This document shows, in pieces, positions 38,283-62,824 of a stretch of 64,000 nt of DNA. The notes beneath the pieces were generated by a model. That model ran no database searches. It was not told the origin of the DNA and was given only the letters and a program-made list of their open reading frames with translations. The first letter of the stretch is position 1. Every line of letters begins with the position of its first letter. This DNA is from Arcobacteraceae bacterium (GTDB lineage: Bacteria > Campylobacterota > Campylobacteria > Campylobacterales > Arcobacteraceae), in assembly GCA_963662945.1 (NCBI GenBank), contig OY759974.1, positions 224,001 to 288,000 on the forward strand. The letters are read 5' to 3'. Made by a program: the position numbers and the translations under genes.

Positions 38283-39509
38283 ATGGCAAAATATGCAGGA
38301 ATAAGATCTGAAGTTATGAAGGATGGATCTGTTGCTATAATGGCTCAATTCAAACATTTAGGTGTTAGATATTCAAAAAAAAATCTAACTTCACTTTGGG
38401 GAATAAGAACTGAAAAAAAAGGTTTTGAAAAATTACAAGAAATAAAAGCTGAATTATCAGATAAAAAAGATCCTTTTGCAAGTTCAGCAAGTTCACTAAA
38501 TTTAATTTGGGAAAAAAAACTTGAGAAAAATAGAGCATCAGGTGAATGGGCTAAATCAACTTGTAAAAATTATTCTTATTTTTATAAAACTCATATAAGA
38601 ACTGCAATTGGTCAAAAGAAAATTGAAAGAATAACATATAATGATATTATGAATCTTTTTGATCATTTTAAAGCTAATCAAGCAAGTTCAAAAAATACTC
38701 TTATTGATATATTAAGACCTATTTTTAATGAAGAACAAATAAAAGGAAATATCACTAAAAATATATTTGATCCTATTAAAAAGTTTGTTGAAATTCCTCA
38801 AAAAGCACCTGTGTCTGATAGAACACATTATGAAGATATTGAAATAATTAGAAGAATTTATAATGCAATACCTGATTATAATCAAGCAAGAGTACATAAT
38901 ATTGAGATGCACCAAAACTTTTTATATATGTTGATTCTAAGTTGTCATAGAGTTGGTGAATTAACTAAATTAGAAAAAAAACATTGTAATTTAGAACATA
39001 GAATAATTGTTGCACCTAAAACTATTACTAAATCAAAAAGAGATTATCACTACCCTATTCCTGAAGAATGTATTTCATATATTGAAAATCATAAAGGTGG
39101 GGTTTTATTTCCAATAGCAAGAGGTGGAACATTAAGTAGAATATTTCAAAGAATACTTTTTCAAGCAGGTATTGATACAATTGAAGGTCATACTTTATCA
39201 AATCACTCTGTTAGAGCTATGATGATGAGTATAATGATTAATGATTTGGATATTAAAGAATCAATAGCTCACAATTGTCTTGAACATAAACCTCAAGATA
39301 TGAAGAAACATTATCATAATATTCCATATAGTGTTAAAGCTAAAACATTTAAGCAATATTGGGATTATATTAAAGAAATACCAATTGAAAATGAAGATAA
39401 TAAAAATACTGATGCAAATCTTGATGATTTAAAAGAATTGATCAGTAATTATAAAGAAGGATTATTGACTAAAGAAGAATTTGAAATAGCTAAAAAAATG
39501 ATATTATAA
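38283..39509 (+). CDS. Tyrosine recombinase/integrase with C-terminal SHOCT-like tail
   Basis: HRVGEL (R), TKSK (K), HSVR, LEH, HY; tail LKELISNYKEGLLTKEEFEIAKKMIL. Confidence 0.88.
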   Translation: MAKYAGIRSEVMKDGSVAIMAQFKHLGVRYSKKNLTSLWGIRTEKKGFEKLQEIKAELSDKKDPFASSASSLNLIWEKKLEKNRASGEWAKSTCKNYSYFYKTHIRTAIGQKKIERITYNDIMNLFDHFKANQASSKNTLIDILRPIFNEEQIKGNITKNIFDPIKKFVEIPQKAPVSDRTHYEDIEIIRRIYNAIPDYNQARVHNIEMHQNFLYMLILSCHRVGELTKLEKKHCNLEHRIIVAPKTITKSKRDYHYPIPEECISYIENHKGGVLFPIARGGTLSRIFQRILFQAGIDTIEGHTLSNHSVRAMMMSIMINDLDIKESIAHNCLEHKPQDMKKHYHNIPYSVKAKTFKQYWDYIKEIPIENEDNKNTDANLDDLKELISNYKEGLLTKEEFEIAKKMIL

Positions 39510-40152: not shown

Positions 40153-40812
40153 TTAATCCTTACACATTTGATCTTTTATTTTTAAAGAACCAAATTTTAT
40201 AAGAACTTTATCTGCCCCTTCAAAATCATCTTCTAATATATAAGATAGTAAATGAGCAAATTCACCATTATAAAACACAATTTTCTTTAATTTTGAAGAA
40301 TTTATATCTGACATACTTTTTAAAAGATTATAAGCATTTAAACTCTTATTTTCAGATATGTTATATTCTATTACACTTGTAAGAAGATTTGCTCTATCAT
40401 TTTTTGATTTGTTTGGAGTTATGATTACATAAGAACCATTTTGTTTCATTAGCATATAGTCTTTATTTGCTCTTTTTATACTTGCTTCATCAATTATTGT
40501 AGTAATACCTATATATGAATATAATAAGTTGATATTTTGCTCTTTTTCATATGTCTTATAAATATGCTTGGTGTAAGAATCTAATTGCTTACAAATAGAT
40601 TTTCCCTTATAAATATCTAATAAAGAACAATCTTCTGTTTTGTCATAACCTAATAACTCAAATGTTTCTTCTCTCTGTATATCAAAATAAGTGTCTTTCA
40701 TTATTTTTATAACTTTCTGATCAGTTTCTTTTTCACAATTTATTTCATCTGCCATTGCACTTGTTGATAATACACCTATTAGTGCTATTGTTGTTATTGT
40801 TTTTTTTAACAT
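40153..40812 (-). CDS. Secreted hypothetical protein, KKTITTIAL paralogue family
   Basis: Signal peptide shared with 56310, 57458 and 58138; HIYKTYEKEQNINLLY motif. Confidence 0.75.
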   Translation of the reverse strand: MLKKTITTIALIGVLSTSAMADEINCEKETDQKVIKIMKDTYFDIQREETFELLGYDKTEDCSLLDIYKGKSICKQLDSYTKHIYKTYEKEQNINLLYSYIGITTIIDEASIKRANKDYMLMKQNGSYVIITPNKSKNDRANLLTSVIEYNISENKSLNAYNLLKSMSDINSSKLKKIVFYNGEFAHLLSYILEDDFEGADKVLIKFGSLKIKDQMCKD

Positions 40813-40971
40813 ATTTTGTTTCCTTTGTATTATAAAATTTAATTTGAGTTGTTTAACTCTATTGGGTTATAGTATTTCATTAATGATAATTATTAAAAAT
40901 GTGAGTTAATTAGAAAAAAGGCAAAAAAAATCCCCACTTAGTAAAAAGTGAGGATTATATGAGTGATTTAG

Positions 40972-43671: not shown

Positions 43672-43827
43672 TAAAAAAGGTAAATACCATTTATATATAT
43701 TATTATTACTCTATGTAAATGAAAAACCCAAAAGGTTACAAAAATGCTATGAAGCATTTTTTCCACCATTTGATAAATTTGTTATGGAATAATGAATTGA
43801 TAAGTGTTTTGAACTTTATCTTTATAT
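43672..43827. repeat. Non-coding repeat module (inverted hairpin copy), near-identical to 62494-62649
   Basis: 156 bp with about 1 mismatch; contains AAAAATGCT-ATGA-AGCATTTTT. Confidence 0.9.
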
Positions 43828-43917
43828 GTCTTAAATTGATTATTGTATCTTAATAAGAACAATTGAAAATCTTGAAAAGTTTCAACTACATTTTATAAGT
43901 TGAGTTGAATTGATTTA

Positions 43918-44187: not shown

Positions 44188-44401
44188 AAATATCCTTCTT
44201 ATTGATATTATAGTTTATTTTAGTATTTTTTTCAATATTGAACTTAATATTTATTATGATTTTAGTGTTATTTGATTAATTTTATAAGGTTTTTCATATG
44301 AAAAAACAAATAAAGGTGTAATTACTGGTTTTAATATTATTTTGAGTTTTAGAGCATATTTAGTTTTTCAATAATAACTTATATTTTCTATCAATATTAA
44401 T

Positions 44402-44648
44402 TAAAGTTGTTGAAACTTTTCAAGATTTTTAATTATCCTTGTGAAAAAACTTTATAGTAATTGAGTATCTGAATAAAGTTGTTGGGATAAGCCAATCTAT
44501 TCTATTATCCTTGTGAAGAGAGTATTGCCAAATACTTAAATATTATCATAGAGATATGAAATATTTTTCTGATCAAAAAAACAAACCAAATAATCCTCAA
44601 TGGTGGAAAAAATGCTTCATAGCATTTTTGTAACCTTTGGTTTGTTCT
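44402..44648. repeat. ~250-bp non-coding repeat module, copy A
   Basis: Near-identical to 48410-48658 and partly to 60071-60250. Confidence 0.9.
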
Positions 44649-44674
44649 TAATAATAAAAGTATAGACTTCAAAA

Positions 44675-45657
44675 TAATAAACTGAAATATTCAACAAATA
44701 AAATTTAATCAAAATTCAATCAGATTTTCTTTTATAAAAAAATTTTACAACTTTTGGAAACTGGAAAATGCAACAAATGAAATTTCTATGCCTTTTATAT
44801 ACTATTTATTGGGTATGTTCAAAATTATTGCCTTCTCTATCTCAACAAAAGGAAAGTAGTTAAAAAAAAGGTGGTAAAAATATCCAACTTAAATATGAAA
44901 AGGTGGTAAAAATGTCCAACTTAAATTTAACTTAAACTTAATTTATTCAATTTTCTTATGTTTAATAAACTGAAATATTCAACAAATAAAATTTAATCAA
45001 AATTCAATCAGATTTTCTTTTATAAAAAAATTTTACAACTTTTGGAAACTGGAAAATGCAACAAATGAAATTTCTATGCCTTTTATATACTATTTATTGG
45101 GTATGTTCAAAATTATTGCCTTCTCTATCTCAACAAAAGGAAAGTAGTTAAAAAAAAGGTGGTAAAAATATCCAACTTAAATATGAAAAGGTGGTAAAAA
45201 TGTCCAACTTAAATTTAACTTAAACTTAATTTATTCAATTTTCTTATGTTTAATAAACTGAAATATTCAACAAATAAAATTTAATCAAAATTCAATCAGA
45301 TTTTCTTTTATAAAAAAATTTTACAACTTTTGGAAACTGGAAAATGCAACAAATGAAATTTCTATGCCTTTTATATACTATTTATTGGGTATGTTCAAAA
45401 TTATTGCCTTCTCTATCTCAACAAAAGGAAAGTAGTTAAAAAAAAGGTGGTAAAAATATCCAACTTAAATATGAAAAGGTGGTAAAAATGTCCAACTTAA
45501 ATTTAACTTAAACTTAATTTATTCAATTTTCTTATGTTTAATAAACTGAAATATTCAACAAATAAAATTTAATCAAAATTCAATCAGATTTTCTTTTATA
45601 AAAAAATTTTACAACTTTTGGAAACTGGAAAATGCAACAAATGAAATTTCTATGCCT
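44675..45657. repeat. Tandem array of a 288-bp unit (3.4 copies), each full unit with two iteron-like repeats
   Basis: Units start at 44675, 44963, 45251 and 45539; AAAAGGTGGTAAAAAT(A/G)TCCAACTTAAAT twice per unit with a 32-bp period. Confidence 0.92.
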
Positions 45658-46020: not shown

Positions 46021-47067
46021 TTGAATAATAAATTTACACATAGTATGAATTGTTTGCTTCCACAAGAACAAAATAGATTTAATAAACCAAATGTATTAAT
46101 TAAGTCACAATTATCACAAGCAATAACTCATAAAGAATCTGAAGTATTTTCAGTATTAGTTAGGATGTTGTTAATAACTGAAAGAAGTAATTTTGATTTA
46201 GTAACTGATTATGATTTAAATTGTGATTATGCAGATATAAATAATTTTATGTCTGATAATCATACATCAAAAGATATTAGAAAAATTCTTGAAAAATTAT
46301 TAAATACAACAATCAGATTTAATTATATACATAATGGTAAATGTAGAATTAGAAATACAAAAATAATTACAGCATATGAAGATAGTAAAGGGAGATATGA
46401 TAAAGCAAGTATCTCATTTGATCATAAACTAATAAAAGTATTAATTGAAAAGGTATATCCATATACAAAATTAAATGAAATTGAGCAATATAAATTATCT
46501 AATATATATTCAACAACTTTTTATGAGTATTTTAAATTAGCTCTTGGTAATAAATTGAGCAATATAAAGTATTTTTCAGAATCAGAATTAAGAAAAAAGT
46601 TTTTTTTAGAAAATAAATACAAAAATATTAAAGAGTTTAATAAGTTTGTAATTAAAAAAGCTTTAACTGAAATAAATAGTCACACATCATTAAATATTGA
46701 ATATAAAGTTGAAAAAGATGAAATATCAAATGAAAGAATATATAAATTTAAAATTGAAGATATTCCTATGACTGAAAATATTTTAAATATTTCAGAATTT
46801 AAAAATCTGATCAAAAATATGTCTAAAAAAAATAGAGAAATTATTTATAAATATAGAAATAATAACTATTATCTTGGTGAACAATTAGACTTTTATGCTA
46901 CAGGAAAAATACTTTGGATTATTGAAAATAGTGATAAAACAACTTCAAAAATTATTGCTACTAAAATTTGGAATAATCTTTATAAAGAATATTTACAAAA
47001 TAGTGAGCAGTTTGCTGAAAAATATTATGATTTATCATATAAAGAATTATTAGAGGATGGAAAATAA
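46021..47067 (+). CDS. Plasmid replication initiator (Rep_3/RepB-like)
   Basis: KPNVLI, LSNIYSTTFYE, ELRKKF..Y..FNKFVIKKALTEINSHTSLNIEY; iterons upstream. Confidence 0.8.
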   Translation: MNNKFTHSMNCLLPQEQNRFNKPNVLIKSQLSQAITHKESEVFSVLVRMLLITERSNFDLVTDYDLNCDYADINNFMSDNHTSKDIRKILEKLLNTTIRFNYIHNGKCRIRNTKIITAYEDSKGRYDKASISFDHKLIKVLIEKVYPYTKLNEIEQYKLSNIYSTTFYEYFKLALGNKLSNIKYFSESELRKKFFLENKYKNIKEFNKFVIKKALTEINSHTSLNIEYKVEKDEISNERIYKFKIEDIPMTENILNISEFKNLIKNMSKKNREIIYKYRNNNYYLGEQLDFYATGKILWIIENSDKTTSKIIATKIWNNLYKEYLQNSEQFAEKYYDLSYKELLEDGK

Positions 47068-48305: not shown

Positions 48306-48409
48306 TTTTCTGATAATTAGCTTTAATTACAACCTTCTCTTAACAGGGAAGGTTTTTTTATGTCTAATTTTTCCTGATTAAATAAATCTAATCTATTATC
48401 AAATCTAAA

Positions 48410-48658
48410 TAAAGTTATTGAAACTTTTCAAGCTCTTTCATTATCCTTGTGAAAAAAACTTTATAGTAATTGAGTATCTGAATAAAGTTGTTGAAACAAG
48501 CCAAGATTTTTAATTATCCTTGTGAAGAGAGTATTGCCAAATACTTAAATATTATCATAGAGATATGAAATATTTTTCTGATCAAAAAAAACAAACCAAA
48601 TAATCCTCAATGGTGGAAAAAATGCTTCATAGCATTTTTGTAACCTTTGGTTTGTTCT
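48410..48658. repeat. ~250-bp non-coding repeat module, copy B
   Basis: Near-identical to 44402-44648. Confidence 0.9.
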
Positions 48659-48750
48659 CTTTAAAAATAGTTTTTTAATATTTTTTATTAATTCAATACT
48701 ATAACCCAATAGATCAATTGATCAAATAAAAATACAAAGGAAAACTGGTT

Positions 48751-50920: not shown

Positions 50921-53900
50921 ATGAAAACAATAGCACCAATTAGCAGTTCAACTGCAAGTAAATATTACTATGAAAAAGATCCTATCTTTAATCCTGATGG
51001 TAAAGATCAAGCTAATATTGAATGGTATGGACAAATAGCAAAAGATTTTGGTATTGAAGGCAAAAATATTACAGGAGAAGAAGCTTACAATCTGTTTCAA
51101 GGTAAATCATTAGATGGTGAGGAACAATTATTAGATAGATCAAAATCTATAACAAGTGGTAATGAAAGAGCTGTATTTGATGCAATTTTAGCACCACCAA
51201 AACCTGTTTCAGCATTAGGATTAATGGAAGGTGGTGATAAAAGAATACTTGAACTTCATAAACAAGCTGTAAAAGCTACTATTGAGCATACTGAAAAAAA
51301 TATAATTGCTACAAGAGGTTATATTAAACAAGAAGATGGTTCTACTAAAAGAGAAACATATAAAACAGGTAATGCTTTGATTGCAAGTGTTAGTCATAGC
51401 ACTAATAGAAATAATGATTTGCATATGCACAATCATATGCTTATTTCAAATATGACTTATGATAAAAATACTAATTCTTATAAATCTTTAAATTTGGATT
51501 TTGTAAATGATCCAAAAGAAATGAACTCTGTTTATCAAAGTGAAATGATGAAAGGTATGAGAGAATTAGGTTATCAACTTGAAATTAGAGATAATGGTGC
51601 TTGGAATGTGGTTGGTTTTGATGAAAAAACAATTGAAGCAATGAGTACAAGAAAAGAAGAAATTGTTGATGCTAAATCAAAATTAGATTCTGATAATATT
51701 AATAAAATGACTAATAGAAAATTAGGATATGAAACTAAAAATGATAAAAATCCTAATATTACAGAAAAAGATATTCAAGAAAGAGCAAAAAATCAATTAG
51801 CTTCTGTTGGTACTACTATTCAAGAATTAAAAGAAAATGCTTTAAATCAGGGAAAATATGTTAATTATTTCTCAAGTGCAAAAGAAGTATTAGAATATAC
51901 TGCTGAAAAACTAACTCAATCAGATGCAAGATTTACTGAAAGAGAATTATTGAGTGCTGCTTCAGAAGTTGCACAAGGTGAATTTACTCATAAAGAATTA
52001 AAAAATGAATTAAGTAATGTAAAAAAGATTGGACAAAAAGAAAATAATGAACTTAAAAGATTAGGAACTGATCAAAAAGGTAATGAAGTTTTTACTACTA
52101 AAGAGATGCACCAAATTGAGAAAGAAAATATTCAATCTGTTAAAAATAATATTCAAGTTAATGGAATTATGACTAAGGAACAGGCTGAAGAAGCATATAA
52201 AGATTTTGCTAAAGAATATTTTGAACTTACAAAAGGTCAAAAAGATGCAGGTTTTCAAATATTAACTTCTACTGATCAAATTGGTGCAATTCAAGGTGAT
52301 GCAGGTACAGGTAAAAGTACAATGCTAAAATTTGTTGCTCATGCACTTGAATATCAAAATAGTAATGTTAAAGTTGCAGTTTCATCTTTAAGTAATAAAG
52401 CTGTTGAAGGTGCAAAAGGATTTTCACAAACTAAAGATGGTAAATCTTTTGAAGGTAGAACACTTCATAACTTAACTAAACAAGATGGTTTAAATAACTT
52501 TGTTAAAGGTGATCAAAAAGGACAAACTCAAAGAGTTAAAGATATTTCAAAAAATTTGAATGATATTCATTTATCAACTGGTAGTAAATCATTTAGTAAT
52601 AATAAAGGTTTTTCTATTGATCCAATGAATAAATTCTCAATAAATAGTTTTAAAAATTTTGAAACTTCAAGTAAAAGTTCAAAAACTAATTATCTTACTG
52701 GTTCTACTACTTATAAAAAAATAACAAAAGTTAAATCAGGTGAACATAAAGGTGCAACTAAAAATGAATCAACTACTGTAAATCAAAGTGGAACTTCTAT
52801 TAAATATCAATCAACAATTAAAGCAAATAATGGTGAAGTTTTTAAACAAAAAATTGAAACATTTAGTCCTGTAAAACTTGGTGGTAGAAATGGAAGTCCT
52901 ATTGCTAAGTTGGGTGAAAAAGTTATGTCAAGTTCTCATAGAGAAGTTAAAAATGATAAAGGTTTTTCTAAAGATAATAAATATTCAATTGCTGGAATTA
53001 CTTTTGAACATAAATCTGCACAAACATCTTATGGTGATCAACATAAAATGGGTATGAATATTTTAGGACTTGCTAAAGCTGAAAAAAATATTAGATCAAA
53101 TCAAACAAAAGATGGTTTAAAAGATACTACTGAAACAAAATTTAGTTTAATGGGATTAACTACTAAAAATATAGTTGAAGAAACTTATAATAAACAAGGT
53201 GAATTAACAAGTAAAGTATCAGTTAATGAAAAATCATTTATGGGTATTACTATTGGTAGAACCACTACATTAGATGATAAATCAAAAGATACTCATAATT
53301 ACTCAAAAAATGAAGATAAAATAAATAATCCAAAATTAGTTGATCAAAAAGAAATTTCTAATAAAGATGAAATGAAACAAGAATCAAAAAATATGGATAA
53401 AGATATAAAATCTGATAAAAAAGAAACTGCTTTATTGGTAGTTGATGAAGCAAGTATGATGAGTGCAAAAGATATGAATGTTATTTTTAAAGAAGTTGAA
53501 CAACTTAGTAAAGAGGGTTATAATGTAAGAGTTGAATTAATGGGTGATTCAAAACAATTACAAGCAATTGGTAGTGGTTCTTCATTTGATCAAATTAAAG
53601 AACAATTAGGTGATAAAGTAGCTGAAATGACTGAATCACAAAGACAAAGAAATACAACTGAACAAGGTATTACTAATCCTATTGCTCAAAAAGATATTAA
53701 AACTGCTTTTGATAATATGGAAAAAGCAGGTGCAATTAAAGAAGTTAAAGATCCTGATCAAAGAATTAATGCTGTGGTTGATGCAATTACTAAAAAAGAA
53801 AATGTTGATATTCAAAATTTTAAAGGTGAAACTGAAACTAAAAATATTGATTATAAAAATACAATTGGTTTAGCTTCTACTAACAAAGAAAATCAAGCAA

Positions 53901-54970
53901 TCAATGCAGGTGTTAGAAATGAATTAAAAAATCAAGGTTTAATCAAAAATGAAGTAAAAACTTCAATTAATGTTGGTGTGTTAAAAAATAGTATTAAACA
54001 ATCAAATGCTGTTAATTATGAAAAAGGTATGGAAGTAAAAACTTTTGAAAAAGTTAATGGAATGGCAAAAAATACTAATTATAAAGTAGTTGATATTAAT
54101 AAAAAAAATAATAGTTTAACACTAAAAACAACTGAACCTGATAAAAATGGTAATCATAAATATACTAATGTTAAAACAAAAGATATTGCAGGAAAAGTTA
54201 CTATTTCACAAAAAGAAGAAAGATCTTTTGGTGAAGGTGATAAAATTAGAATTACTGAAACTAATAAAAAAGCAGGTTTAACAAATTCTGATCAAGGAAT
54301 TATCACTAATATGGATCAAAAAAATAAAATTGCTACTATTGATTTTGGTGAAAAAGGAACTAAGCAAGTTGATTTAAAACAACAAAAAGGGATTGAATAT
54401 GGTTATTCAATGACAAATCACTCTGCTCAAGGAATTTCTGTTGATAGAGTTGTTGCAACTTTTGATACTTCAAAAAATGCTCAAATGAATACTATGAATA
54501 GTACATATGTTGCTATGTCAAGACAATCTGCAAAATCAGTTGCAATTACAGATAATAAAGAAAATTTGATGAATCAAGCAAGTAAAGAAGCTAAAAATGT
54601 TAGTACATTAGATAATCTAAAAGATGAAAAATCTAATAATAAAGTTGATCAAAAAACTGAAAATCAATCTAAAGAAAAGAATGATGTTTCAAAAGATAAA
54701 CTTGAAATTGATTCAAATAGTATCAAAGATGAAAAATCTAATAATAAAGTTGATCAAAAAATAGAAGATCAAAAAGATAAATCTGTTGATAAAGATAAAG
54801 TTAATAGAGTTGAAAGACAAACTATTAATGATTTAGGTGATTCAAAAAAATCTAATGATAAATTTAAAGCATTAGATAATATTAAAGATGAAAAATCAAA
54901 TGATATTTCAAAAGATAAATCTGATCAAAAAATTCAATCACCTCAAAAAGATCAAGGTATGTCAAGATAA
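50921..54970 (+). CDS. MOBF (TrwC/TraI-like) relaxase-helicase
   Basis: YYY..WYG, FDAILAPPKPVS, HSTNRNNDLHMHNH, QGDAGTGKST, VVDEASM, GDSKQLQAIGSG, YSMTNHSAQG, YVAMSR. Confidence 0.92.
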   Translation: MKTIAPISSSTASKYYYEKDPIFNPDGKDQANIEWYGQIAKDFGIEGKNITGEEAYNLFQGKSLDGEEQLLDRSKSITSGNERAVFDAILAPPKPVSALGLMEGGDKRILELHKQAVKATIEHTEKNIIATRGYIKQEDGSTKRETYKTGNALIASVSHSTNRNNDLHMHNHMLISNMTYDKNTNSYKSLNLDFVNDPKEMNSVYQSEMMKGMRELGYQLEIRDNGAWNVVGFDEKTIEAMSTRKEEIVDAKSKLDSDNINKMTNRKLGYETKNDKNPNITEKDIQERAKNQLASVGTTIQELKENALNQGKYVNYFSSAKEVLEYTAEKLTQSDARFTERELLSAASEVAQGEFTHKELKNELSNVKKIGQKENNELKRLGTDQKGNEVFTTKEMHQIEKENIQSVKNNIQVNGIMTKEQAEEAYKDFAKEYFELTKGQKDAGFQILTSTDQIGAIQGDAGTGKSTMLKFVAHALEYQNSNVKVAVSSLSNKAVEGAKGFSQTKDGKSFEGRTLHNLTKQDGLNNFVKGDQKGQTQRVKDISKNLNDIHLSTGSKSFSNNKGFSIDPMNKFSINSFKNFETSSKSSKTNYLTGSTTYKKITKVKSGEHKGATKNESTTVNQSGTSIKYQSTIKANNGEVFKQKIETFSPVKLGGRNGSPIAKLGEKVMSSSHREVKNDKGFSKDNKYSIAGITFEHKSAQTSYGDQHKMGMNILGLAKAEKNIRSNQTKDGLKDTTETKFSLMGLTTKNIVEETYNKQGELTSKVSVNEKSFMGITIGRTTTLDDKSKDTHNYSKNEDKINNPKLVDQKEISNKDEMKQESKNMDKDIKSDKKETALLVVDEASMMSAKDMNVIFKEVEQLSKEGYNVRVELMGDSKQLQAIGSGSSFDQIKEQLGDKVAEMTESQRQRNTTEQGITNPIAQKDIKTAFDNMEKAGAIKEVKDPDQRINAVVDAITKKENVDIQNFKGETETKNIDYKNTIGLASTNKENQAINAGVRNELKNQGLIKNEVKTSINVGVLKNSIKQSNAVNYEKGMEVKTFEKVNGMAKNTNYKVVDINKKNNSLTLKTTEPDKNGNHKYTNVKTKDIAGKVTISQKEERSFGEGDKIRITETNKKAGLTNSDQGIITNMDQKNKIATIDFGEKGTKQVDLKQQKGIEYGYSMTNHSAQGISVDRVVATFDTSKNAQMNTMNSTYVAMSRQSAKSVAITDNKENLMNQASKEAKNVSTLDNLKDEKSNNKVDQKTENQSKEKNDVSKDKLEIDSNSIKDEKSNNKVDQKIEDQKDKSVDKDKVNRVERQTINDLGDSKKSNDKFKALDNIKDEKSNDISKDKSDQKIQSPQKDQGMSR

Positions 54971-55015: not shown

Positions 55016-55819
55016 TTAAAATGATGAAGAGAATGAACCCTTCACACCTGAATATTCTTCATTATATCCAACTGATATAGTTAAAACTGCATTTTTATAT
55101 TTATATCCAAATCCTGCCCCAACTGCACTTGCACCATTGAAATTCACTATATTTATAGCAAAACTTCTACTACCATTATTAAAATTAAAATCTAAGTTTG
55201 TTGCCATACCTGCACTTATTTTTAGATTTTCTCTTTTATCTATATCTTTTATACTTGCTTCTAATGCTGATATTCTATTTGAATTATTTGCAATATTAGA
55301 TGTATTAGTTGCAATATTTTCAGTATTTATATTAATTTTTCCTCTATTTTCACTAATATCACTTGTATTTTGAGCAATATTAGCTGTATTTGTTGCAATG
55401 TTTGATGTATTTGTTGCTATATCATTAGTGTTTTGAGCAATATTAGTTATATCACTTGTATTTTGAGCAACATCATTTTGTAAATCACTAATATCATTAG
55501 TGTTTTGTGTAATATTATCTGTATTAGTTACAATATCATTAGTATTTTGAGCAACATCATTTTCTAAATCAACTATATTAAAACCAACACAAGAACCATC
55601 ACTTTGCCAAGTATCATTTATAGTATTATCATCACCATCATCACAATCTGAACCAATAGTATAACCACTACAATATCCACCAATCAATGTATGCCAAGTA
55701 TCATTTACTGTATTAGCATTACCATCATCACAAGCATCCCCTTCTTCTAATGCTTGTAATTCACACAATACACCTGATATTAATAATAAAAATAATTGAA
55801 AGTGTTTTTGTTTTAACAT
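55016..55819 (-). CDS. Small YadA-like trimeric autotransporter adhesin
   Basis: Signal peptide, two CDDG..NT.NDTW repeats, IAxNTxx heptad stalk, beta-rich anchor ending in F. Confidence 0.7.
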   Translation of the reverse strand: MLKQKHFQLFLLLISGVLCELQALEEGDACDDGNANTVNDTWHTLIGGYCSGYTIGSDCDDGDDNTINDTWQSDGSCVGFNIVDLENDVAQNTNDIVTNTDNITQNTNDISDLQNDVAQNTSDITNIAQNTNDIATNTSNIATNTANIAQNTSDISENRGKININTENIATNTSNIANNSNRISALEASIKDIDKRENLKISAGMATNLDFNFNNGSRSFAINIVNFNGASAVGAGFGYKYKNAVLTISVGYNEEYSGVKGSFSSSF

Positions 55820-56309: not shown

Positions 56310-57305
56310 TTATTTATAATTTGAACATATACCTTGTGCATAATATCTTACTTGTCCATTCTTATCATAAGTAAAATTACCTGCAATTTGTTCTGTATTA
56401 ACTCCAATAACTGTACCATCATTAAGTGATCTTAATTCAATAATATTTTGATTACTATATACTTGAATAATTATATATGTATGTGAAGTATCAACCATTG
56501 ATTTATTAGCTAAATTCACAATATCTACACCATTATTGAATTTAATTTTTGTTCCTTTTTCATAATAATCTTCAGTTATTTGATTTTTCTTTTGATCAAA
56601 ATTAACATTGTAGTTACTTGTAAAAATTTCTTTATCAATAAATTGATCAGCTCTATTAAATTCACCTTGAATAACTAAATTTAAGAATTTCCAAAATTTA
56701 GGATCTCTATATCCTACACCTCTAACTTTTGATTGATTACCATTTTTCCAAATTGAATAAGCAAAATTAGTTGCACTAATCCCATCCCCTTTAGAATATC
56801 TTTCAGTTCCATATTTATAAGTTCTAAATCCTTTTGCAAATGGTGGGTTAGTTTCAAGAATCTTTTTAAAACCTGCATCTGAATTAAGTCCTGCATCAGT
56901 CAATCTAAACATATATGAAAAAGTATTATATAAAAGATTTATATCACCATCATTTTTATATTTTTGATCAATATGATGAATATATCCTTCAACTTGAGAA
57001 CAAAATCTTCCTGTATTATAATTATACACATCACCATCAGTAGATTTAATTTGAAAATTATAATCCATACCAATAAAATCTGACATAGCAATTTTACAAG
57101 ATTTAATTGCTACTACTTCATTAACTCTTATTGAAGAATCTGAAGTATCTCTATTATCTAAATTAATAGCATTTTTATCAAATATTGATGCTAAATTCCC
57201 ATCAATATTTGAACAGAATTGTTTTTTCTCTGCTTCTGTATTAGCATATGCACTTATTGATAATGCACCTATTAGTGCTATTGTTGTTATTGTTTTTTTA
57301 AACAT
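56310..57305 (-). CDS. Secreted hypothetical protein, KKTITTIAL paralogue family
   Basis: GMDYNFQIK, HIDQKYKNDGDINLLY, DPKFWKFL. Confidence 0.75.
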   Translation of the reverse strand: MFKKTITTIALIGALSISAYANTEAEKKQFCSNIDGNLASIFDKNAINLDNRDTSDSSIRVNEVVAIKSCKIAMSDFIGMDYNFQIKSTDGDVYNYNTGRFCSQVEGYIHHIDQKYKNDGDINLLYNTFSYMFRLTDAGLNSDAGFKKILETNPPFAKGFRTYKYGTERYSKGDGISATNFAYSIWKNGNQSKVRGVGYRDPKFWKFLNLVIQGEFNRADQFIDKEIFTSNYNVNFDQKKNQITEDYYEKGTKIKFNNGVDIVNLANKSMVDTSHTYIIIQVYSNQNIIELRSLNDGTVIGVNTEQIAGNFTYDKNGQVRYYAQGICSNYK

Positions 57306-57457
57306 ATTTTGTTTCCTTTAAATTTTAATTTGTTTAGGAAAAATTAATTCCCCTACTTAGTTATATCAAAAATAAAAAATAAAAATATTTTTTAATATTT
57401 TTTATTAACTTCTTGATCAAAAAAAATCCACACTTAATAAAAAGTGAGGATTAATTA

Positions 57458-58135
57458 CTATAAAAGTATTTTAATAGCTTCAGATCTAATTTTTTTACCA
57501 TCATATTCTTCAACTAATTTATCAGCACTTTCAAAATTTTGTTGTATTATGTATGATAAAAATTGATGAAATTTAGGATCATTAAATCCTACATATCTTT
57601 CAGATCCTTGATAACCACTTTGAAAAATGAAGTCAAACATTTCACAAGCATGATAATTATAAACTTTTAATGATAAAATATTTTCACCATAAAATGTGTT
57701 TCTTAATATAGAATTATTAGGAATAAATTTTATAAGTTCACTATTTTTATTTATTCCTCTACTAAAAAATGAAACATATGAATATAAAAGTTCAATATTA
57801 TCTTCTTTCTTATATCTATCATAAATATGTTCTATATATTTATTAAGATTTTTTCCAAATCTTATAAGATTATATGTTCTCATGTTCCCTGAAACATCTT
57901 TAATTGTAAAACCATAATCCATTCCAAGTAATTTTATTGTTGTATTACAATATCCACCACCATTTGAATCACCAAACCATCCAACTTGTTTGTATCTTTC
58001 AACATCTATTTTATTACTAATAGTTGATTGTAATCCATTAACAATTTTTTGATCTATTGGATTTAATGATTTTCCAAATAAACTTATTGATAATGCACCT
58101 AATAGTGCTATTGTTGTTATTGTTTTTTTAAACAT
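57458..58135 (-). CDS. Secreted hypothetical protein, KKTITTIAL paralogue family
   Basis: GMDYGFTIK, HIYDRYKKEDNIELLY, DPKFHQFL. Confidence 0.75.
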   Translation of the reverse strand: MFKKTITTIALLGALSISLFGKSLNPIDQKIVNGLQSTISNKIDVERYKQVGWFGDSNGGGYCNTTIKLLGMDYGFTIKDVSGNMRTYNLIRFGKNLNKYIEHIYDRYKKEDNIELLYSYVSFFSRGINKNSELIKFIPNNSILRNTFYGENILSLKVYNYHACEMFDFIFQSGYQGSERYVGFNDPKFHQFLSYIIQQNFESADKLVEEYDGKKIRSEAIKILL

Positions 58136-58137
58136 AA

Positions 58138-58431
58138 TTAAATACCACTCATTTGTTCTTGACATAAACTCATTGATGTAAAAAACAGATAAATATATTT
58201 TTCATTATAATGAATTACAGATGTACCACCTGCACTTTCTACAATGAACTGTTTTTGTGTCACTATATCTCTTAATTTATCTTCTGTATATTCACATTCT
58301 TTATTAGCAAGATTATAAAAAATATTTGCTTCTTCATTTGTAAGTGATCTTTTTTCCCATTTTACATCTGCCATTGCACTTGTTGATAATGCACCTAATA
58401 GTGCTATTGTTGTTATTGTTTTTTTTAACAT
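58138..58431 (-). CDS. Small secreted protein sharing the same signal peptide
   Basis: MLKKTITTIALLGALSTSAMAD; mature part unrelated. Confidence 0.7.
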   Translation of the reverse strand: MLKKTITTIALLGALSTSAMADVKWEKRSLTNEEANIFYNLANKECEYTEDKLRDIVTQKQFIVESAGGTSVIHYNEKYIYLFFTSMSLCQEQMSGI

Positions 58432-58603
58432 ATTTTGTTTCCTTTAAATTTTAATTTGTTTAGGAAAAATTAATTCCCCTACTTAGTTATATCAAGAAAA
58501 TAAAATAAATATATTTTTTAATACTTTTTATTAAGTTCTTGATATTTTATGTTCAATAGAACATATTAAAATAATTTTTTTATTTCAAAATCAAATAAAA
58601 TAT

Positions 58604-58963
58604 TTAATCATCATATCCCATATAGTTCACATCATCATAAAATTCTTTTGCACTTAATCCTAAACTTAAAGCAAAAAAAGCAACTATAAATCCAACTATT
58701 ATTGCTATTATCCAATGTTGTGAAGATATTGCTAATGAAAATCCAAATATTCCCCATCCTATTGAATAAGCATATATTAAATAATCACCAAATTTTGTTT
58801 GAACAATAAACCATAAAACAAAAAATAATATAAATCCAAAAAAACCATTATCAGTTATATTTGATAAAATAAAACTCAAAATAATAGTTGTAATAGTAAA
58901 ATATCCTATTCCTACATTATTCACCTCTGATTGATTATTCCCTTGTCTTATATAACTACCCAT
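58604..58963 (-). CDS. Hypothetical 4-TM membrane protein
   Basis: Hydrophobic segments; AAGGA RBS. Confidence 0.7.
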   Translation of the reverse strand: MGSYIRQGNNQSEVNNVGIGYFTITTIILSFILSNITDNGFFGFILFFVLWFIVQTKFGDYLIYAYSIGWGIFGFSLAISSQHWIIAIIVGFIVAFFALSLGLSAKEFYDDVNYMGYDD

Positions 58964-59005
58964 TTTAAATCCTTTTTTTTAATTACATAAAAGCCAAATT
59001 GACTT

Positions 59006-59518
59006 TTATGCTACTCTGTATATTCTCCCATTATGTAAATCATAATCAAAAGATAAATCACTTGCCATTGCATCAACATCAAGATAGTTTTCTAAATGTG
59101 GTGGTATTTCTCCAAATAAACCTTGATCAATAAATTCCCAAGCTAAATCTTTGAAATTATCATAATCATAAACTTCTAAATCATCAACTTTATTAATTGC
59201 TTCTTCTACTGAATAATTTAAACTATCTGTTAAATATGATAAACTTTCTATCTGATCATCATCTAAATCTAAATTATTATATGTATTAAATACTTCTTCA
59301 ATATTTGAATTTTCTGTAATAATTCCTAAAAAATCATTTTCCCAGTCTGCCATAAATAGTTCTAAATCATCTGAATTAAGTCCATTTAGTCTTTTAGCTT
59401 CTTTTACATACTCATAAATCTCTTCTATATCTGTTTCTTGATCAAACCATTTACATAATAATATTCCTCCATTGTTATATAATTCCCATTCTTCTACTGC
59501 TATACTTAGATTTTCCAT
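59006..59518 (-). CDS. ardA: Antirestriction protein ArdA (type I RM DNA mimic)
   Basis: YNNG..W, ELFMADWE, GEIP..L.NYLD..A.A.DL; very acidic. Confidence 0.88.
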   Translation of the reverse strand: MENLSIAVEEWELYNNGGILLCKWFDQETDIEEIYEYVKEAKRLNGLNSDDLELFMADWENDFLGIITENSNIEEVFNTYNNLDLDDDQIESLSYLTDSLNYSVEEAINKVDDLEVYDYDNFKDLAWEFIDQGLFGEIPPHLENYLDVDAMASDLSFDYDLHNGRIYRVA

Positions 59519-60065
59519 TGTAATTTCCTTATAAAATGATTTTTCCTTTTAGAAGATTTTTTTAAGAGGGCTTGGAGATTTTTGTAATAACTTTTAATTA
59601 AGTTAAAACAATCCTCACCCTTTTAATCAACTTTCAGGATTTTTCCCCTTAGTTAGTTTCTTCAATCAGGCTTTGAAAATTAAATTGTCATTTTCATAAC
59701 TTAGAATAAAATACAAATTAGTATAATTTTATATTTAGTGTAAGTTTGCAATATGTAAGATTTGAATTGGAAAAGTTTGAAGAAACTCAATAAGATGAAA
59801 AATAAAAGTTGATCAATAAAGGTGATTGGTTTTATTAATGATATGTAATAAAAAGTTATTACCAAAATTTTAGTTTTTTGTGTTTGAATGTAATGAAAAC
59901 TTATATTATTTGATCAAAGTTTAAATGCTAAGTATTTATAATTTATGTTCTTGATCAAATACCTTGAAATTTTTTTGTTTCTTTTTTAAAAGAAATATTC
60001 ATATTTAAAAATATGAATAATGTTTTAATATATAAAAAAGGTAAATACCATTTATATATATTATT
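59516..60065 (-). promoter_or_regulatory. Conserved upstream repeat with long stem-loop (Frpo/ssi-like), copy 1
   Basis: Homologous to 61990-62527; arms at about 59580-59665 and 59777-59868. Confidence 0.7.
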
Positions 60066-60070
60066 AATTA

Positions 60071-60250
60071 AGTATCTGAATAAAGTTGTTGAAACAAGTC
60101 AAGATTTTTAATTATCCTTGTGAAGAGAGTATTGCCAAATACTTAAATATTATCATAGAGATATGAAATATTTTTCTGATCAAAAAAACCATAACAAATA
60201 ATTCAAATGATGAAAAAAATACTTCATAGTATTTTTGTAATCTTTTGTTT
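60071..60250. repeat. Non-coding repeat module, copy C (diverged hairpin)
   Basis: Shares AGTATCTGAATAAAG...CTGATCAAAAAA with copies A and B. Confidence 0.85.
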
Positions 60251-60327
60251 AATTACCTTTCAAATAATAATGGATTTTTTCAAGGTCTTTATTGACTTTA
60301 TCCATTGCACCTAATAGTGCTTCATTT

Positions 60328-60720
60328 TTATTTATAAATAATTATATCTGATATTAATGCAAGAATTTTATCATCACCCTCATTTTCTTGTAAGTATTCT
60401 CTTAGCTCTTTAAAATTATTTATAATTCTGTTTTTTACATACTGATATAAATCTGCATCTATTAATTCTTTTTCTAATTTTTCATCAATATTTTTTCCAT
60501 TATCAACAAAAACTAAATCATATTTTACTTTTATTTCTGTTGTATTACTTTCTAACTTATAATCATTATATTTTGGATCAATAGAATAATCTATTTTTTT
60601 TAGATCACCATTAACAAATTCACCTTGTGCAATTATTTTATTATTTGATTTAAAATCAAATCCAATATATCTTATTGCAACTCTATTTGTTTCTAATAAT
60701 TGTTCTAATTTTTCATACAT
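60328..60720 (-). CDS. Hypothetical protein
   Basis: ORF with AAGGA RBS. Confidence 0.65.
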   Translation of the reverse strand: MYEKLEQLLETNRVAIRYIGFDFKSNNKIIAQGEFVNGDLKKIDYSIDPKYNDYKLESNTTEIKVKYDLVFVDNGKNIDEKLEKELIDADLYQYVKNRIINNFKELREYLQENEGDDKILALISDIIIYK

Positions 60721-60803
60721 TATATTCCTTTATTTTTAAAGCAAATATTATATTCAAAATAACTTTAATTATTCTATTTTAACTCTTCTTTTGAATCTTT
60801 TGT

Positions 60804-60986
60804 TTAATTACCTTTCAAATAATAATGGATTTTTTCAAGATCTTTATTGACTTTATCCATTGCACCTGTATAGCTCCAACATATAGTTTTATCTTCTTCA
60901 ACATAGTTTTCAATTAACTCTTTAATTTCTTCTAACAATACTAATGCTTTATTTTTATTTTGTATATATACTTTTGTTGATGTCAT
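60804..60986 (-). CDS. Small hypothetical protein
   Basis: AGGAG RBS; 3' end duplicated at 60239-60312. Confidence 0.6.
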   Translation of the reverse strand: MTSTKVYIQNKNKALVLLEEIKELIENYVEEDKTICWSYTGAMDKVNKDLEKIHYYLKGN

Positions 60987-61060
60987 TTGTTTCTCCTATA
61001 ATAAAAATTCACCAATTTTAAATATTAAATCATCTACTTTTTCTAATATCTCTTTTAATT

Positions 61061-61357
61061 TCATAATAATTCCTGTTTAAGAATTTCAAGCTCTTTCCAT
61101 TTTTTTCTTGATAAAAATAAACTTTCTTTTAATTCTTGAATTGTGGTTTCTAAATGATTGATAATCATTTCTTTTTTAGATGATTTATGTTCACCAAAGA
61201 ACTTCTTGAAAAAATTATAACTTCTATCAATATAAAATTGTTCTTCTTCCTCTGAAATATGCACTAAATAGTCACTCTTTATTTGAATAGTATCTTTTAG
61301 TTGATTACCTTGATTTACAATGATATTTTGTTGCTTTTCTAATTCTGCTAAATTCAT
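61061..61357 (-). CDS. Hypothetical coiled-coil protein
   Basis: Start moved to MNLAELEK, just after the upstream small ORF. Confidence 0.55.
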   Translation of the reverse strand: MNLAELEKQQNIIVNQGNQLKDTIQIKSDYLVHISEEEEQFYIDRSYNFFKKFFGEHKSSKKEMIINHLETTIQELKESLFLSRKKWKELEILKQELL

Positions 61358-61367
61358 AATAAGTCTT

Positions 61368-61544
61368 TTATTGAAAGTCAATAGAATAGTTGATATTATC
61401 ATCACTATGTATCATATTTAAAGCTTTATCATATGCAATATTACAAGCTTCATCCCAATCATCAGCATCTACTTCAATTTCTTCAAAGGCATAAGGCATA
61501 TTTTTATCAAAATCTTCATCATACCAAACTATTTCTACTCTCAT
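61368..61544 (-). CDS. Small highly acidic protein, 58 aa
   Basis: Not in the ORF track; AAGGAG RBS; MRVEIVWYDEDFDKNMPYAFEEIEVDADDWDEACNIAYDKALNMIHSDDNINYSIDFQ. Confidence 0.7.
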   Translation of the reverse strand: MRVEIVWYDEDFDKNMPYAFEEIEVDADDWDEACNIAYDKALNMIHSDDNINYSIDFQ

Positions 61545-61584
61545 AATTTACTCCTTTTAGATATTTTTATAAATAAAATCCCTT

Positions 61585-61992
61585 TTAAAAAGGAACTTTA
61601 TCTGCACTTTTTTCTGCTTCTATTTGTTCATTAATAATTTGAGATAACATCTTTTCTTGAACATTATCTTCAACTAATTGTTGTCTGTTATATACTGTGT
61701 AATATCTTACTGTTTCATCTTTCTTAGTAAATAATTGAACTCCATATTGTTTATCATCTTTGAATGTTAAATCCATTTCATCCATATCTTTTTGAGTTAG
61801 CCAAGTATTATCTGAATAGTTTTCTTTTTTAGCTCTCAAATCTAATAATTTTAAATTTAAACCTTTATATTCATTACCTTTAATACTTGTATGTACTTCT
61901 ATGTTACTATTGTGATTAGATACACTTATAATTGCTCTTTTGTAAATATCATTGATATTAAAAGTCTTTGCTGTTTTAGTTGTTGTTGTCAT
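61585..61992 (-). CDS. ArdC N-terminal (ssDNA-binding)-like protein
   Basis: GNEYKGLN...Y.D..WLT...YYTVYN..Q matches the ArdC-N pattern; no metalloprotease-like C-domain. Confidence 0.65.
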   Translation of the reverse strand: MTTTTKTAKTFNINDIYKRAIISVSNHNSNIEVHTSIKGNEYKGLNLKLLDLRAKKENYSDNTWLTQKDMDEMDLTFKDDKQYGVQLFTKKDETVRYYTVYNRQQLVEDNVQEKMLSQIINEQIEAEKSADKVPF

Positions 61993-62527
61993 TGTAATTT
62001 CCTTTTAAAAATGTTTTACCTTTTTTGAAGATTTTAAGAGGGTTTTGGATGATTTGTTTAAACTTTTAATTAAGTCAAAACATATCCCCTCTTTTTCTTA
62101 CTTCAAGGTTTTACCTCTTCAGTTAGTTTCAATCAGGCTTTGAAAATTAAATAGTCAATTTCATAACTTAGAATAAAATATAAATTAGAATAATTTTATT
62201 TATAGTATAAGTTTGTAAGGTGTAAGATTTGAATTGGAAAAGTTTGAAACTCACTTAGAGTTAAAATGTAGTAAGAATAAAAGAGATATATGTTTTCTTA
62301 ATGGTATGTAATAAAAAGTTTAAATTAATCACTGTTTATTGTGTTTGAATGTAATGAAAACTTATATTATTTGATCAAAGTTTAAATGCTAAGTATTTAT
62401 AATTTATGTTCTTGATAAAATACCTTGAAATTTTTTGTTTCTTTTACAAAAGAAATATTCATATTTAAAAAATATGAATAATGTTTTAATATATAAAAAA
62501 GGTAAATACCATTTATATATATTATTA
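61990..62527 (-). promoter_or_regulatory. Conserved upstream repeat with long stem-loop (Frpo/ssi-like), copy 2
   Basis: Arms at about 62051-62132 and 62244-62330. Confidence 0.7.
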
Positions 62528-62711
62528 TTACTCTATGTAAATGAAAAACACAAAAGGTTACAAAAATGCTATGAAGCATTTTTTCCACCATTTGATAAAT
62601 TTGTTATGGAATAATGAATTGATAAGTGTTTTGAACTTTATCTTTATATTCTTTCAACTGTAAAGTTTTTTTCATAAGGATAATTAAAGAGCTTGAAAAG
62701 TTTCAATAACT
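62494..62711. repeat. Non-coding repeat module, inverted copy
   Basis: Matches 43672-43827; 62665-62711 is close to the reverse complement of the start of copy B. Confidence 0.85.
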
Positions 62712-62824
62712 TCTTTGAAAGTTCAATATTATTCTTTATAGTTTTGTCTTTTTCTCCTAATCTTTTTATATAACATAATATGTTGATCAAATCAACAAAT
62801 TTAAAAAATAAAAGGATAAAAGTT

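Follow-up and report, generated by a model that had tools for sequence, protein, structure and literature searches.

Long hairpins before ardA and ardC-N in an Arcobacteraceae mobile element: candidate initiation sites on single-stranded DNA

Introduction

Promoters that act on single-stranded DNA (ssDNA) and have mapped start sites are described, in the excerpts available of the literature that we found, only for enterobacterial IncF and IncI1 plasmids, where they form three classes. The accessible sections of PMC12672017 report six hairpin promoters of about 300 nt on plasmid pESBL, which belong to three sequence-unrelated classes and whose start sites were determined by 5'RACE; the members of class 2 are a pair of similar hairpins 5' of klcA and ardA (pESBL/F). 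Induction failed in a distant host, which suggests adaptation to the sigma factor of the host (PMC12672017). Large surveys have sought ssDNA promoters mainly by similarity to known sequences: the one in PMC11541004 used, in the portion at hand, BLAST against five known Frpo/ssi sequences together with consensus boxes in four islands, and describes anti-defence genes oriented for transcription from the transferred strand (T-strand). According to excerpts of PMC6294495, other plasmids use repressor-controlled promoters in double-stranded DNA (dsDNA) or long structured untranslated regions (UTRs) before ard genes; IncN plasmids carry conserved regions of >400 bp upstream of ard-type operons, and a long UTR with inverted repeats raises ardC expression in plasmid p576. 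A single-strand origin (sso) is reported in an integrative and conjugative element (ICE), ICEBs1 (PMC4595007, excerpt). Here we analyse two hairpins of about 290 nt that directly precede ardA and an operon headed by a gene for an ArdC N-terminal domain (ardC-N) in an integrated mobile element of an Arcobacteraceae bacterium. They lie in a 64,000-nt stretch (positions 224,001 to 288,000 of contig OY759974.1, assembly GCA_963662945.1), called the window below, whose numbering is used throughout and is extended where a feature lies beyond it.

The module to which these hairpins belong fits the pattern of ssDNA promoters by its size, by its multiplicity, by its place before ard genes and by the strand that folds. 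The analysis tips slightly in favour of each hairpin being an initiation site on ssDNA, that is, a snap-back promoter or a primer site which resembles Frpo/ssi and is unrelated to it in sequence.

Results

The window contains two blocks of ~540 nt (59519-60060 and 61993-62530), which precede ardA and ardC-N, respectively, and share 90% mean column identity over a 583-column alignment. By BLAST the blocks are 85% identical, and only two full copies exist in the 2.5-Mb genome. The ardA gene (59006-59518, - strand) encodes a protein of 170 aa (Pfam ArdA, E 1.1e-14). The ardC-N gene (61585-61992, - strand) comprises only the N-terminal domain of ArdC (135 aa; Pfam ArdcN, E 1.1e-6) and is the first of ~5 co-directional small open reading frames (ORFs) reaching down to 60328. 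Palindrome alignment delimits the inverted repeats to 59578-59868 for copy 1 (108 Watson-Crick pairs in 291 nt) and to 62050-62331 for copy 2 before the ardC-N operon (102 pairs in 282 nt), both read on the + strand, which is the template strand of ardA.

A sequence-only reading of the window had described both hairpins by paired strings, all of which are present where it placed them. In copy 1, GTAATAACTTTT at 59584 pairs with AAAAGTTATTAC at 59851, their counterparts in copy 2 being TTTAAACTTTT at 62057 and AAAAGTTTAAA at 62314; likewise AGTTTCTTCAA at 59655 pairs with TTGAAGAAACT at 59777, with the counterparts AGTTTCAA at 62125 and TTGAAACT at 62244. The matched 3-nt indel that it pointed out appears in the block alignment as a gap in both arms. 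Its claim that the copies differ in sequence and keep their pairing can be read directly from these examples, which are compensated; the strong evidence for it is the covariation in the wider family presented below. Naive transfer of the copy-1 pairs onto copy 2 via the sequence alignment yielded only 2 strictly compensated pairs, an undercount that arises because the diverged helices are out of register in this alignment.

Folded as ssDNA, copy 1 reached -43.9 kcal/mol on the - strand and -45.4 kcal/mol on the + strand (z-score -6.0 for both), and copy 2 reached -41.3 and -44.5 kcal/mol, respectively (z -6.7 and -6.5). None of 100 shuffled sequences folded as well in any of these four strand/copy folds, and the long stem proposed earlier thus stands well apart from shuffled controls on both strands of both copies (z -6.0 to -6.7). 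A 300-nt sliding fold of the + strand over 104 kb (2074 folding windows) ranked copy 2 4th and copy 1 10th.

The upstream ~190 nt of the blocks (59869-60060 in copy 1 and 62332-62527 in copy 2, - strand) are ~99% identical between the copies, the hairpin half being more diverged. In copy 1 this upstream part holds four small palindromes; it is element-specific, lies outside the family-wide module described below and is possibly a dsDNA promoter/operator region. On the other side of the hairpins lie conserved leaders (- strand): the one between hairpin 1 and the ATG of ardA (59519-59577) carries a family motif and an AAGGA ribosome-binding site, and the one between hairpin 2 and the ATG of ardC-N (61993-62049) shares the family motif. 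Both genes had been said to lack a TATAAC box seen before most other element genes. Neither ardA nor ardC-N has such a box within 150 nt; "most" overstates its frequency elsewhere, since TATAAC occurs within 150 nt upstream of 12 of the 27 listed element ORFs, mostly at -33 to -65.

With copy 1 as BLAST query against 184 genomes of the family, the search returned mostly short AT-rich noise and real matches only in genomes G039 and G025. A third hairpin emerged when ArdA homologues of the order were inspected: in the congener G127 it precedes an ardA that is 33% identical. Following up the weak match in G039 revealed a fourth, before a J-domain gene. The G039 copy as query matched 47 of the 184 family genomes, representing 12 of 22 genera (E<=1e-6, 68-88% identity). 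In an even sample of the order, matches at E<=1e-8 were found in 10 of 39 family genomes and in 2 of 361 genomes outside the family. A loose pattern scan of genome contigs, in which each of the matches listed (at least 120) was folded, contained L072 as the sole family member among them. A chance pattern match of the same scan, L118 on a Rummeliibacillus contig, is a 223-nt stretch with z ~-10 that is unrelated to the module.

Altogether 53 candidate copies were collected, namely the two window copies, L039, L072, 29 loci from the BLAST search with the G039 copy and 20 fetched stretches. Three of them (L176, L183 and L212), in which the leader motif was not found, were dropped, and the remaining 50 comprise 49 distinct copies, L213 being equal to L214. 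All 50 contain a hairpin of 274-362 nt with 96-137 Watson-Crick pairs; next on the sense strand come the leader ..CCCTC..AATCTTC(A/T)AAAA..GG.AAAA.. and then an AAGGA-type ribosome-binding site. Every copy is oriented toward its downstream region, and in 47 an ORF of at least 40 aa starts 34-82 nt past the leader motif.

The downstream genes are dominated by a ~154-aa J-domain protein (35 of 50 copies; HPD motif, weak Pfam DnaJ match, phrog_15863 at 2.9e-33). ArdA follows the hairpin in four copies, ArdC-N in one and a RadC-like JAB protein in two (Pfam 2e-42); a 194-205-aa protein of no assigned family is found in two, small hydrophobic ORFs in three, and three copies have no ORF within reach. 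The J-domain protein (e.g. L167:1847-2308, and 34 other loci) combines an N-terminal J-domain with a conserved W-rich C-terminal domain, and this C-terminal part matched no Pfam family. Cargo of the ArdA, ArdC and RadC kind is typical of establishment or anti-defence functions; the J-domain protein is a candidate establishment factor.

The genetic contexts of the module are diverse. In G127 it is part of an F-type ICE with the order ArdC-N, DUF2958, hairpin, ArdA, and in G039 it belongs to a ~12-kb int...xis island, where the hairpin begins ~45 nt past the integrase gene. The TrwC relaxase of the window element had no match in five other carrier genomes. The candidate origin of transfer of this element (oriT, described below) had no homologue at E<=1e-4 in the same five genomes, where a single weak 63-nt match was seen (E 1.8e-4). 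These different contexts and the lack of TrwC and oriT homologues in five carriers indicate that the module is a cassette common to unrelated backbones; this distribution suggests that a factor of the host recognises the module. A search of positions 58900-62800 with Rfam covariance models gave two chance-level matches (E 0.35 and 0.99), both outside the hairpins.

Long hairpins of other sequence were also noticed near ardA homologues. Genome G197, from another family of the order, has a sequence-unrelated, G+C-richer hairpin of ~215 nt located 330-590 nt upstream of an ardA homologue (L043:850-1180). With -80.6 kcal/mol (z -10.1) on the template strand against -67.9 kcal/mol (z -7.8) on the sense strand, this hairpin has the same strand bias as the module (see below) and may represent a second class of ssDNA-promoter-like element. 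A further long hairpin lies ~1 kb upstream of ardA in genome G477 (L041).

How much covariation of the arms is recovered depends on the register of the alignment. RNAalifold applied to a MAFFT alignment recovered just 26 pairs, 17 of them with compensatory change, because MAFFT leaves only parts of the arms in register. Alignment A3 provided 51 in-register pairs, made up of 48 column pairs with the same partner column in at least 60% of copies and 3 pairs of a branch helix. On these, 85.2% of cells are paired (75.8% in shuffles), both sides change in 32 pairs (19.9 ± 1.8 shuffled), 243 cells are compensated (84.9 ± 8.8 shuffled) and the covariation score is 0.291 (0.135 shuffled, at most 0.074 in slid controls); none of 500 shuffles reached any of the observed measures, all of which lean toward structure because the pair columns were derived from the same sequences. 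When each copy was instead aligned by its own palindrome, 91 of 127 well-populated columns showed at least two Watson-Crick pair types in at least two copies.

Read on the template strand from base to tip, the hairpin starts with a basal stem of ~20-25 bp. About 20 nt above the base, a mini stem-loop of 3-4 bp with a 3-4-nt loop branches from the 3' arm (TAT-GTA-ATA at 59842-59850 in copy 1, 62305-62313 in copy 2, both + strand). Its stem covaries between copies: at column pair 450:459, 24 have GC and 16 have AU, and at pair 451:456, UA occurs in 20, CG in 15, UG in 7 and AU in 3. The bulge near the hairpin base had been considered as a pre-melted -10 box, an idea that was dropped when the bulge proved to be this stem-loop. 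Further up, a GTTAGTT box (59652-59658, + strand), invariant in all 49 distinct copies, pairs with AACT(A/C)A(A/T) or AACTAA(T/C) on the other arm and is followed by a mismatch-rich bubble. The apical stem holds ..TTTTTGCTTAGAATAAAAT.. and has conserved mismatches, with 39 of the 49 copies unpaired at column 237 and 36 at column 239. The tip is variable and has gained ~60 nt by insertion in one subgroup.

The two strands of the module do not fold equally well. In 48 of 50 copies the template strand, which is complementary to the mRNA, was more stable with DNA and RNA parameters alike, the mean values for template and sense strand being -48.1 vs -43.2 kcal/mol with DNA and -73.7 vs -59.8 kcal/mol with RNA parameters. 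After correction for composition, an excess of -2.5 kcal/mol remained, which was seen in 38 of 49 copies (Wilcoxon 4e-7).

Bases that oppose each other in the stem without Watson-Crick pairing (G·T and G·G versus A·C and C·C) offer a sequence-independent computational test for the folding strand. The count itself is strand-neutral, covers 127 columns and is reported here for the template strand, on which G·T outnumbers A·C (219 vs 80), G·G outnumbers C·C (100 vs 10), A·G outnumbers C·T (285 vs 154) and T·T outnumbers A·A (173 vs 119). With mismatch stability ordered according to nearest-neighbour data, the stabler mismatch of each complementary pair of classes lies on the template strand. Parsimony on a FastTree phylogeny revealed the same direction, with 96 changes from a Watson-Crick pair to G·T and 60 to A·C (p 0.005), beside 359 changes from one Watson-Crick pair to another.

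A snap-back promoter draws both its template and its non-template strand from one strand, hence its boxes must read 5' to 3' on the folding strand. Under the criterion of A at position 2, T at position 6 and at least 4/6 matches, two alignment columns carry a -10-like hexamer, each in 38 of 49 copies. The first (TAAAAT/TAAACT beside TAGAAT) lies close beneath the tip on the 5' arm, where the stem has conserved mismatches; the second (TAGAAT/TAGAGT) is on the 3' arm beside the bubble. Candidate promoter-like sites on the + strand are TTGTCA-16-TAAAAT in copy 1 (59685-59712), which lies on the 5' arm and overlaps a TAGAAT at 59701-59706, and TAGTCA-16-TAAAAT in copy 2 (62152-62179). If the 5'-arm site is the true one, polymerase would need to initiate close to the tip and follow the strand around the loop; from duplex DNA, this site would fire away from the gene.

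In plasmids such as F and R388 and their relatives, transfer genes beside oriT are the last to enter. A reasonable candidate for oriT, judged by its sequence features, is an intergenic region of 857 nt (L217:2668-3524; window-extended 66668-67524) that precedes a 177-aa gene and the operon of a type IV coupling protein (T4CP). It is the strongest-folding stretch in the 104 kb (-57.7 kcal/mol over 401 nt, z -6.8) and holds four copies of TGTAAACA, among them a perfect inverted pair of 10 bp; a 9-bp repeat inverted about a G+C-rich loop (AAGGTACAA-N17-TTGTACCTT) and two direct ATTCTCAAAAT(G/A)AGAAT repeats are also present. If this candidate is real and the F/R388 geometry holds, the T-strand would be the + strand, the template of ardA and ardC-N, a polarity which agrees with the template-strand folding bias.

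Two further leads on the transfer origin were set aside. The MOBF nic-site motif gave 1 match with 3 mismatches, 1.34 being expected by chance, and was uninformative. A NikA-like match in G127 (E 1e-5, below the Pfam cut-off) stands beside a ParA-like gene and is likelier part of a partition pair than a relaxosome gene; it was not used to place oriT.

The chromosome that contains both hairpins is a single AT-rich contig of 2.5 Mb, into which a mobile element is integrated from ~38.2 kb; housekeeping genes resume at ~82.5 kb (window-extended coordinates). A tyrosine integrase gene (38241-39509, + strand) comes first in the element. A Rep3-type initiator gene (46021-47067, + strand) follows directly on 3.4 perfect tandem copies of a 288-nt unit (44675-45657), which could be an iteron or origin region, and a TrwC-type relaxase is encoded at 50921-54970 (+ strand). 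Genes on the - strand, ardA and ardC-N included, run uninterrupted from 62 kb down to 55 kb. Beyond the window, the T4CP gene (64224-66122, - strand; TrwB_AAD_bind 8.6e-68) is preceded by the 177-aa gene, which has a weak ribbon-helix-helix-like DUF6290 match (E 0.008), and restriction-modification genes, type I and others, lie past the T4CP region and before the housekeeping genes. No mating-pore genes were found by Pfam among the element ORFs scanned. With integrase, Rep3 initiator, TrwC relaxase and T4CP present and mating-pore genes undetected by Pfam, the host of the hairpins looks like an integrative mobilizable element of ~44 kb (38241 to ~82500).

Other repeats were observed in the same element. 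An intergenic module of ~290 nt occurs in six copies, at 44373-44661, 48381-48671 and 60051-60268 (+ strand), at 43708-43897 and 62530-62723 (inverted) and also at L217:8380-8570. It holds the hairpin AAAAAATGCTTCATAGCATTTTT, is often followed by a palindromic GGTAAATACC..TATATATATTA motif and may be a terminator or regulatory cassette. Repeats with a period of 21 nt (55266-55561) fall within a 267-aa ORF without Pfam match (55016-55819, - strand), which may encode a repetitive surface protein or be a repeat array. Four to five small - strand genes have near-identical signal-peptide-like 5' ends (40743-40835, 57236-57328, 58066-58158 and 58362-58454) and upstream regions (71-94% identity) and make up an element-borne paralogous family for secreted proteins or lipoproteins. 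To the left of the element, in the chromosome, a HamA-domain protein (PF08878, 1.7e-18) adjoins a 1112-aa DEAD/ResIII helicase (26470-30793, - strand), which looks like a Hachiman-type defence pair.

Discussion

The hairpins described here form a structured, conserved and covarying module that has a fixed orientation toward an ORF, in some copies of an establishment or anti-defence kind, and folds better on the template strand. We infer from this pattern the transferred strand, recognition by RNA polymerase, the start site and the loss of activity in dsDNA. The sequence-only reading had proposed a Campylobacterota analogue of Frpo/ssi. This proposal is supported in part, as the hairpins are real and covary across the family, precede genes for ArdA, ArdC-N and RadC and fold better on the template strand; a -35/-10 pair could not be pinned down beyond the -10-like hexamers, the polarity of the T-strand was assigned by analogy, and the likeness to Frpo/ssi does not extend to sequence.

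The mechanism that we favour would operate as follows. During mobilization, one strand would enter the recipient as ssDNA, presumably the template strand of ardA and ardC-N (+). The ~290-nt inverted repeat would fold into a long imperfect duplex with fixed landmarks, including the -10-like TAGAAT/TAAAAT segment below the apical loop, and host RNA polymerase could bind this pseudo-duplex and transcribe along the same strand toward its 5' end. The resulting mRNA would carry the conserved leader and the ribosome-binding site of the anti-defence gene and would be made before a complementary strand exists; RNA started at the hairpin could also prime synthesis of that strand. Expression is proposed to be transient, because the hairpin would no longer form once the DNA is double-stranded.

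A more far-reaching version of the ssDNA initiation site is put forward tentatively, and we consider it doubtful. The module could be a portable ssDNA promoter read by host RNA polymerase, with a new architecture that consists of a three-way junction, an invariant leader and a -10-like element on the 5' arm below the apical loop. Pointing off the gene in dsDNA and into the anti-defence gene only from the folded T-strand, it would act as a built-in directional on/off switch. As a cassette present in unrelated backbones, including small islands without detected relaxase, the module may serve any route of single-stranded DNA entry into these bacteria.

A number of observations weigh against an initiation site on ssDNA. 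Regarding the folding strand, composition alone, as estimated from shuffles, gives -2.3 of the -4.8 kcal/mol strand difference, about half of it. The window copies taken by themselves are without strand bias (sense G·T 4 and A·C 3 in each), which makes the bias a property of the family that cannot be demonstrated from the window alone, and with RNA parameters the sense RNA of copy 1 is even the stabler one (-67.4 vs -62.6 kcal/mol). Moreover, the mismatch spectrum fits an antisense RNA as well as template-strand ssDNA. Regarding the promoter, no conserved -35 was found across the family, and -10-like hexamers are easily found in DNA of 23% G+C. Promoter-like matches are not enriched in the 3.4-kb region (26 vs 30.8 in shuffles). 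With the -35 not conserved and matches at chance frequency, the promoter sites are candidates only. The mini stem-loop near the base covaries in sequence and accordingly represents a conserved shape, not a conserved -10 box.

Further points of this kind concern cargo and transfer. Thirty-five of the 50 copies drive a J-domain protein without known anti-defence role, and in some small int...xis islands (~12 kb) with the module a relaxase was not found by Pfam. A location of the hairpins in the leading region is not supported for this element: the best oriT candidate would put both 4.5-7.5 kb before the 3', last-entering end of the presumed T-strand, that is, in a trailing position. Such a position suits a priming site for the complementary strand and still permits transcription from ssDNA. 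The TrwC relaxase gene and the T4CP operon are encoded on different strands; were oriT to lie upstream of the relaxase operon, the T-strand would be the - strand. In genome G010, the ORF driven by the hairpin and the T4CP gene nearest to it, at a distance of 24 kb, run in opposite directions. Because of the relaxase gene on the other strand and the opposite orientation in G010, the polarity of the T-strand is put forward by inference only.

The ambiguity of the mismatch spectrum leads directly to the first of four other explanations. A cis-antisense RNA would be transcribed through the hairpin, overlap the 5' leader and shut off the anti-defence gene after establishment. The better-folding strand is antisense to the gene, and wobble of the G·U type fits RNA equally well; a promoter-like site lies on the + strand inside the hairpin, and the invariant T-orientation sequence TTTTTGAAGA..GAGGG stands directly 5' of it. 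However, 0 terminator-like sites were found in the region and no Rfam family matched. Known cis-antisense regulators are much shorter, whereas the length of 274-362 nt matches ssDNA promoters, for which PMC12672017, in the part available, scans windows of 300 nt. An antisense RNA would also leave the link of the module to establishment-type genes in unrelated elements unexplained, and we regard it as unlikely.

The trailing position, on the other hand, is what could be expected if the hairpin were an sso and nothing else, that is, a priming site for the complementary strand after transfer or rolling-circle replication whose position beside a gene is incidental. Priming 4.5-7.5 kb before the presumed 3' end of the T-strand would copy nearly the whole complement in one run, and orientation-specific long hairpins are a hallmark of sso elements, one of which is reported in an ICE (PMC4595007, excerpt). 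A pure replication signal would gain nothing from the coupling seen in all 50 copies, in which leader, ribosome-binding site and ORF follow at a constant short spacing and in one orientation. One 44-kb element also has two copies, each before an operon. A role in replication only is thus rather improbable; it overlaps with the initiation site that we favour, because the promoter and primer roles coincide in Frpo.

A structured leader of the sense RNA had been named as the alternative in the sequence-only reading. Transcribed from a promoter in the upstream block, such a 5' UTR could act in mRNA stability, RNase III processing or translation control. The hairpin does lie between the conserved upstream block and the ribosome-binding site, p576 provides a precedent in the form of a long inverted-repeat UTR that boosts ardC (PMC6294495, excerpt), and copy 1 is stabler as sense RNA under RNA parameters. 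Across the family, template-strand folding speaks against this leader: 48 of 50 copies fold less well on the sense strand, whose mismatches are the unfavourable ones (A·C 219 and C·C 100, against G·U-type 80 and G·G 10). Other family members lack the ~190-nt upstream block, which is element-specific, and in G039 only ~45 nt separate the hairpin from the integrase gene. We consider a sense leader decidedly improbable.

Finally, a dsDNA palindrome or repeat (a CUP-like region or repressor operator array) or a selfish inverted-repeat insertion, neither having a single-strand function, would recall the repeated conserved blocks known upstream of ard genes in IncN plasmids (PMC6294495, excerpt) and the four small palindromes of the ~190-nt upstream part, but is very improbable, as a dsDNA site should be strand-symmetric while the mismatch spectrum is asymmetric, compensation keeps 100+ pairs over 290 nt and a covarying mini stem-loop, which exceeds the needs of an operator, and the module has a fixed orientation toward an ORF, with no target-site duplications noticed.

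If the hairpins are indeed initiation sites on ssDNA, they would constitute an independent family of ssDNA promoters in Campylobacterales, recognisable by structure, covariation and a strand-specific mismatch signature. Early expression from the transferred strand would then, if confirmed, be a general solution that was found repeatedly. The module also flags the ~154-aa J-domain protein and several unassigned ORFs as likely establishment or anti-defence genes.

Comparison with described systems started from databases and literature. A PLSDB blastn search in 'distant' mode (72,556 plasmids) with copy 1 and two relatives returned no match with the low-complexity filter on, under which weak AT-rich similarity could escape. 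PLSDB presumably includes the F and IncI1 plasmids. A full-text literature search found no paper joining Campylobacter with 'ssDNA promoter' or Arcobacter with 'leading region'. Given no sequence relationship to Frpo/ssi, the resemblance is one of functional analogy and not of family membership.

Among dsDNA systems, the CUP-type repeats of IncN plasmids are similar in that a block of several hundred bp is repeated upstream of ard or establishment operons; here it is ~540 nt, present twice and 85-90% identical. CUP-type repeats are thought to be dsDNA promoter/operator regions for repressors of the ArdK/ArdR type, and we know of no strand-asymmetric 290-nt hairpin described for them. The sso elements are long hairpins in the displaced or transferred strand, at which host RNA polymerase makes a primer. 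Like those of rolling-circle plasmids and ICEBs1 and like the minus-strand origin of filamentous phages, the module is a long, orientation-specific hairpin and, with the candidate oriT, would lie near the last-exposed end of the strand; in contrast to the module, the sso elements are not known to come with a leader, ribosome-binding site and ORF.

Hairpin promoters of conjugative plasmids are close to the module as well. With class 2 of pESBL/F, as described in excerpts of PMC12672017, the Arcobacteraceae module shares the arrangement of two alike hairpins before two different anti-restriction genes, unrelated in sequence to Frpo; the class 2 hairpins differ in having mapped start sites and zygotic induction. 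Class 1, which comprises Frpo and ssi1-3 of F and the IncI1 plasmids ColIb-P9 and pESBL, likewise consists of imperfect hairpins of ~300 nt that occur in several similar copies per element, stand directly upstream of establishment or anti-defence operons (ssb, psiB and ardA in their case) and have the template as the folded strand. The module differs from class 1 by the lack of sequence similarity in PLSDB and of a detected conserved -35, by its position trailing the candidate oriT of an integrated mobilizable element in which no mating-pore genes were found, by its Campylobacterales host, and by two features of its own, the additional covarying branch stem-loop and the invariant single-stranded leader.

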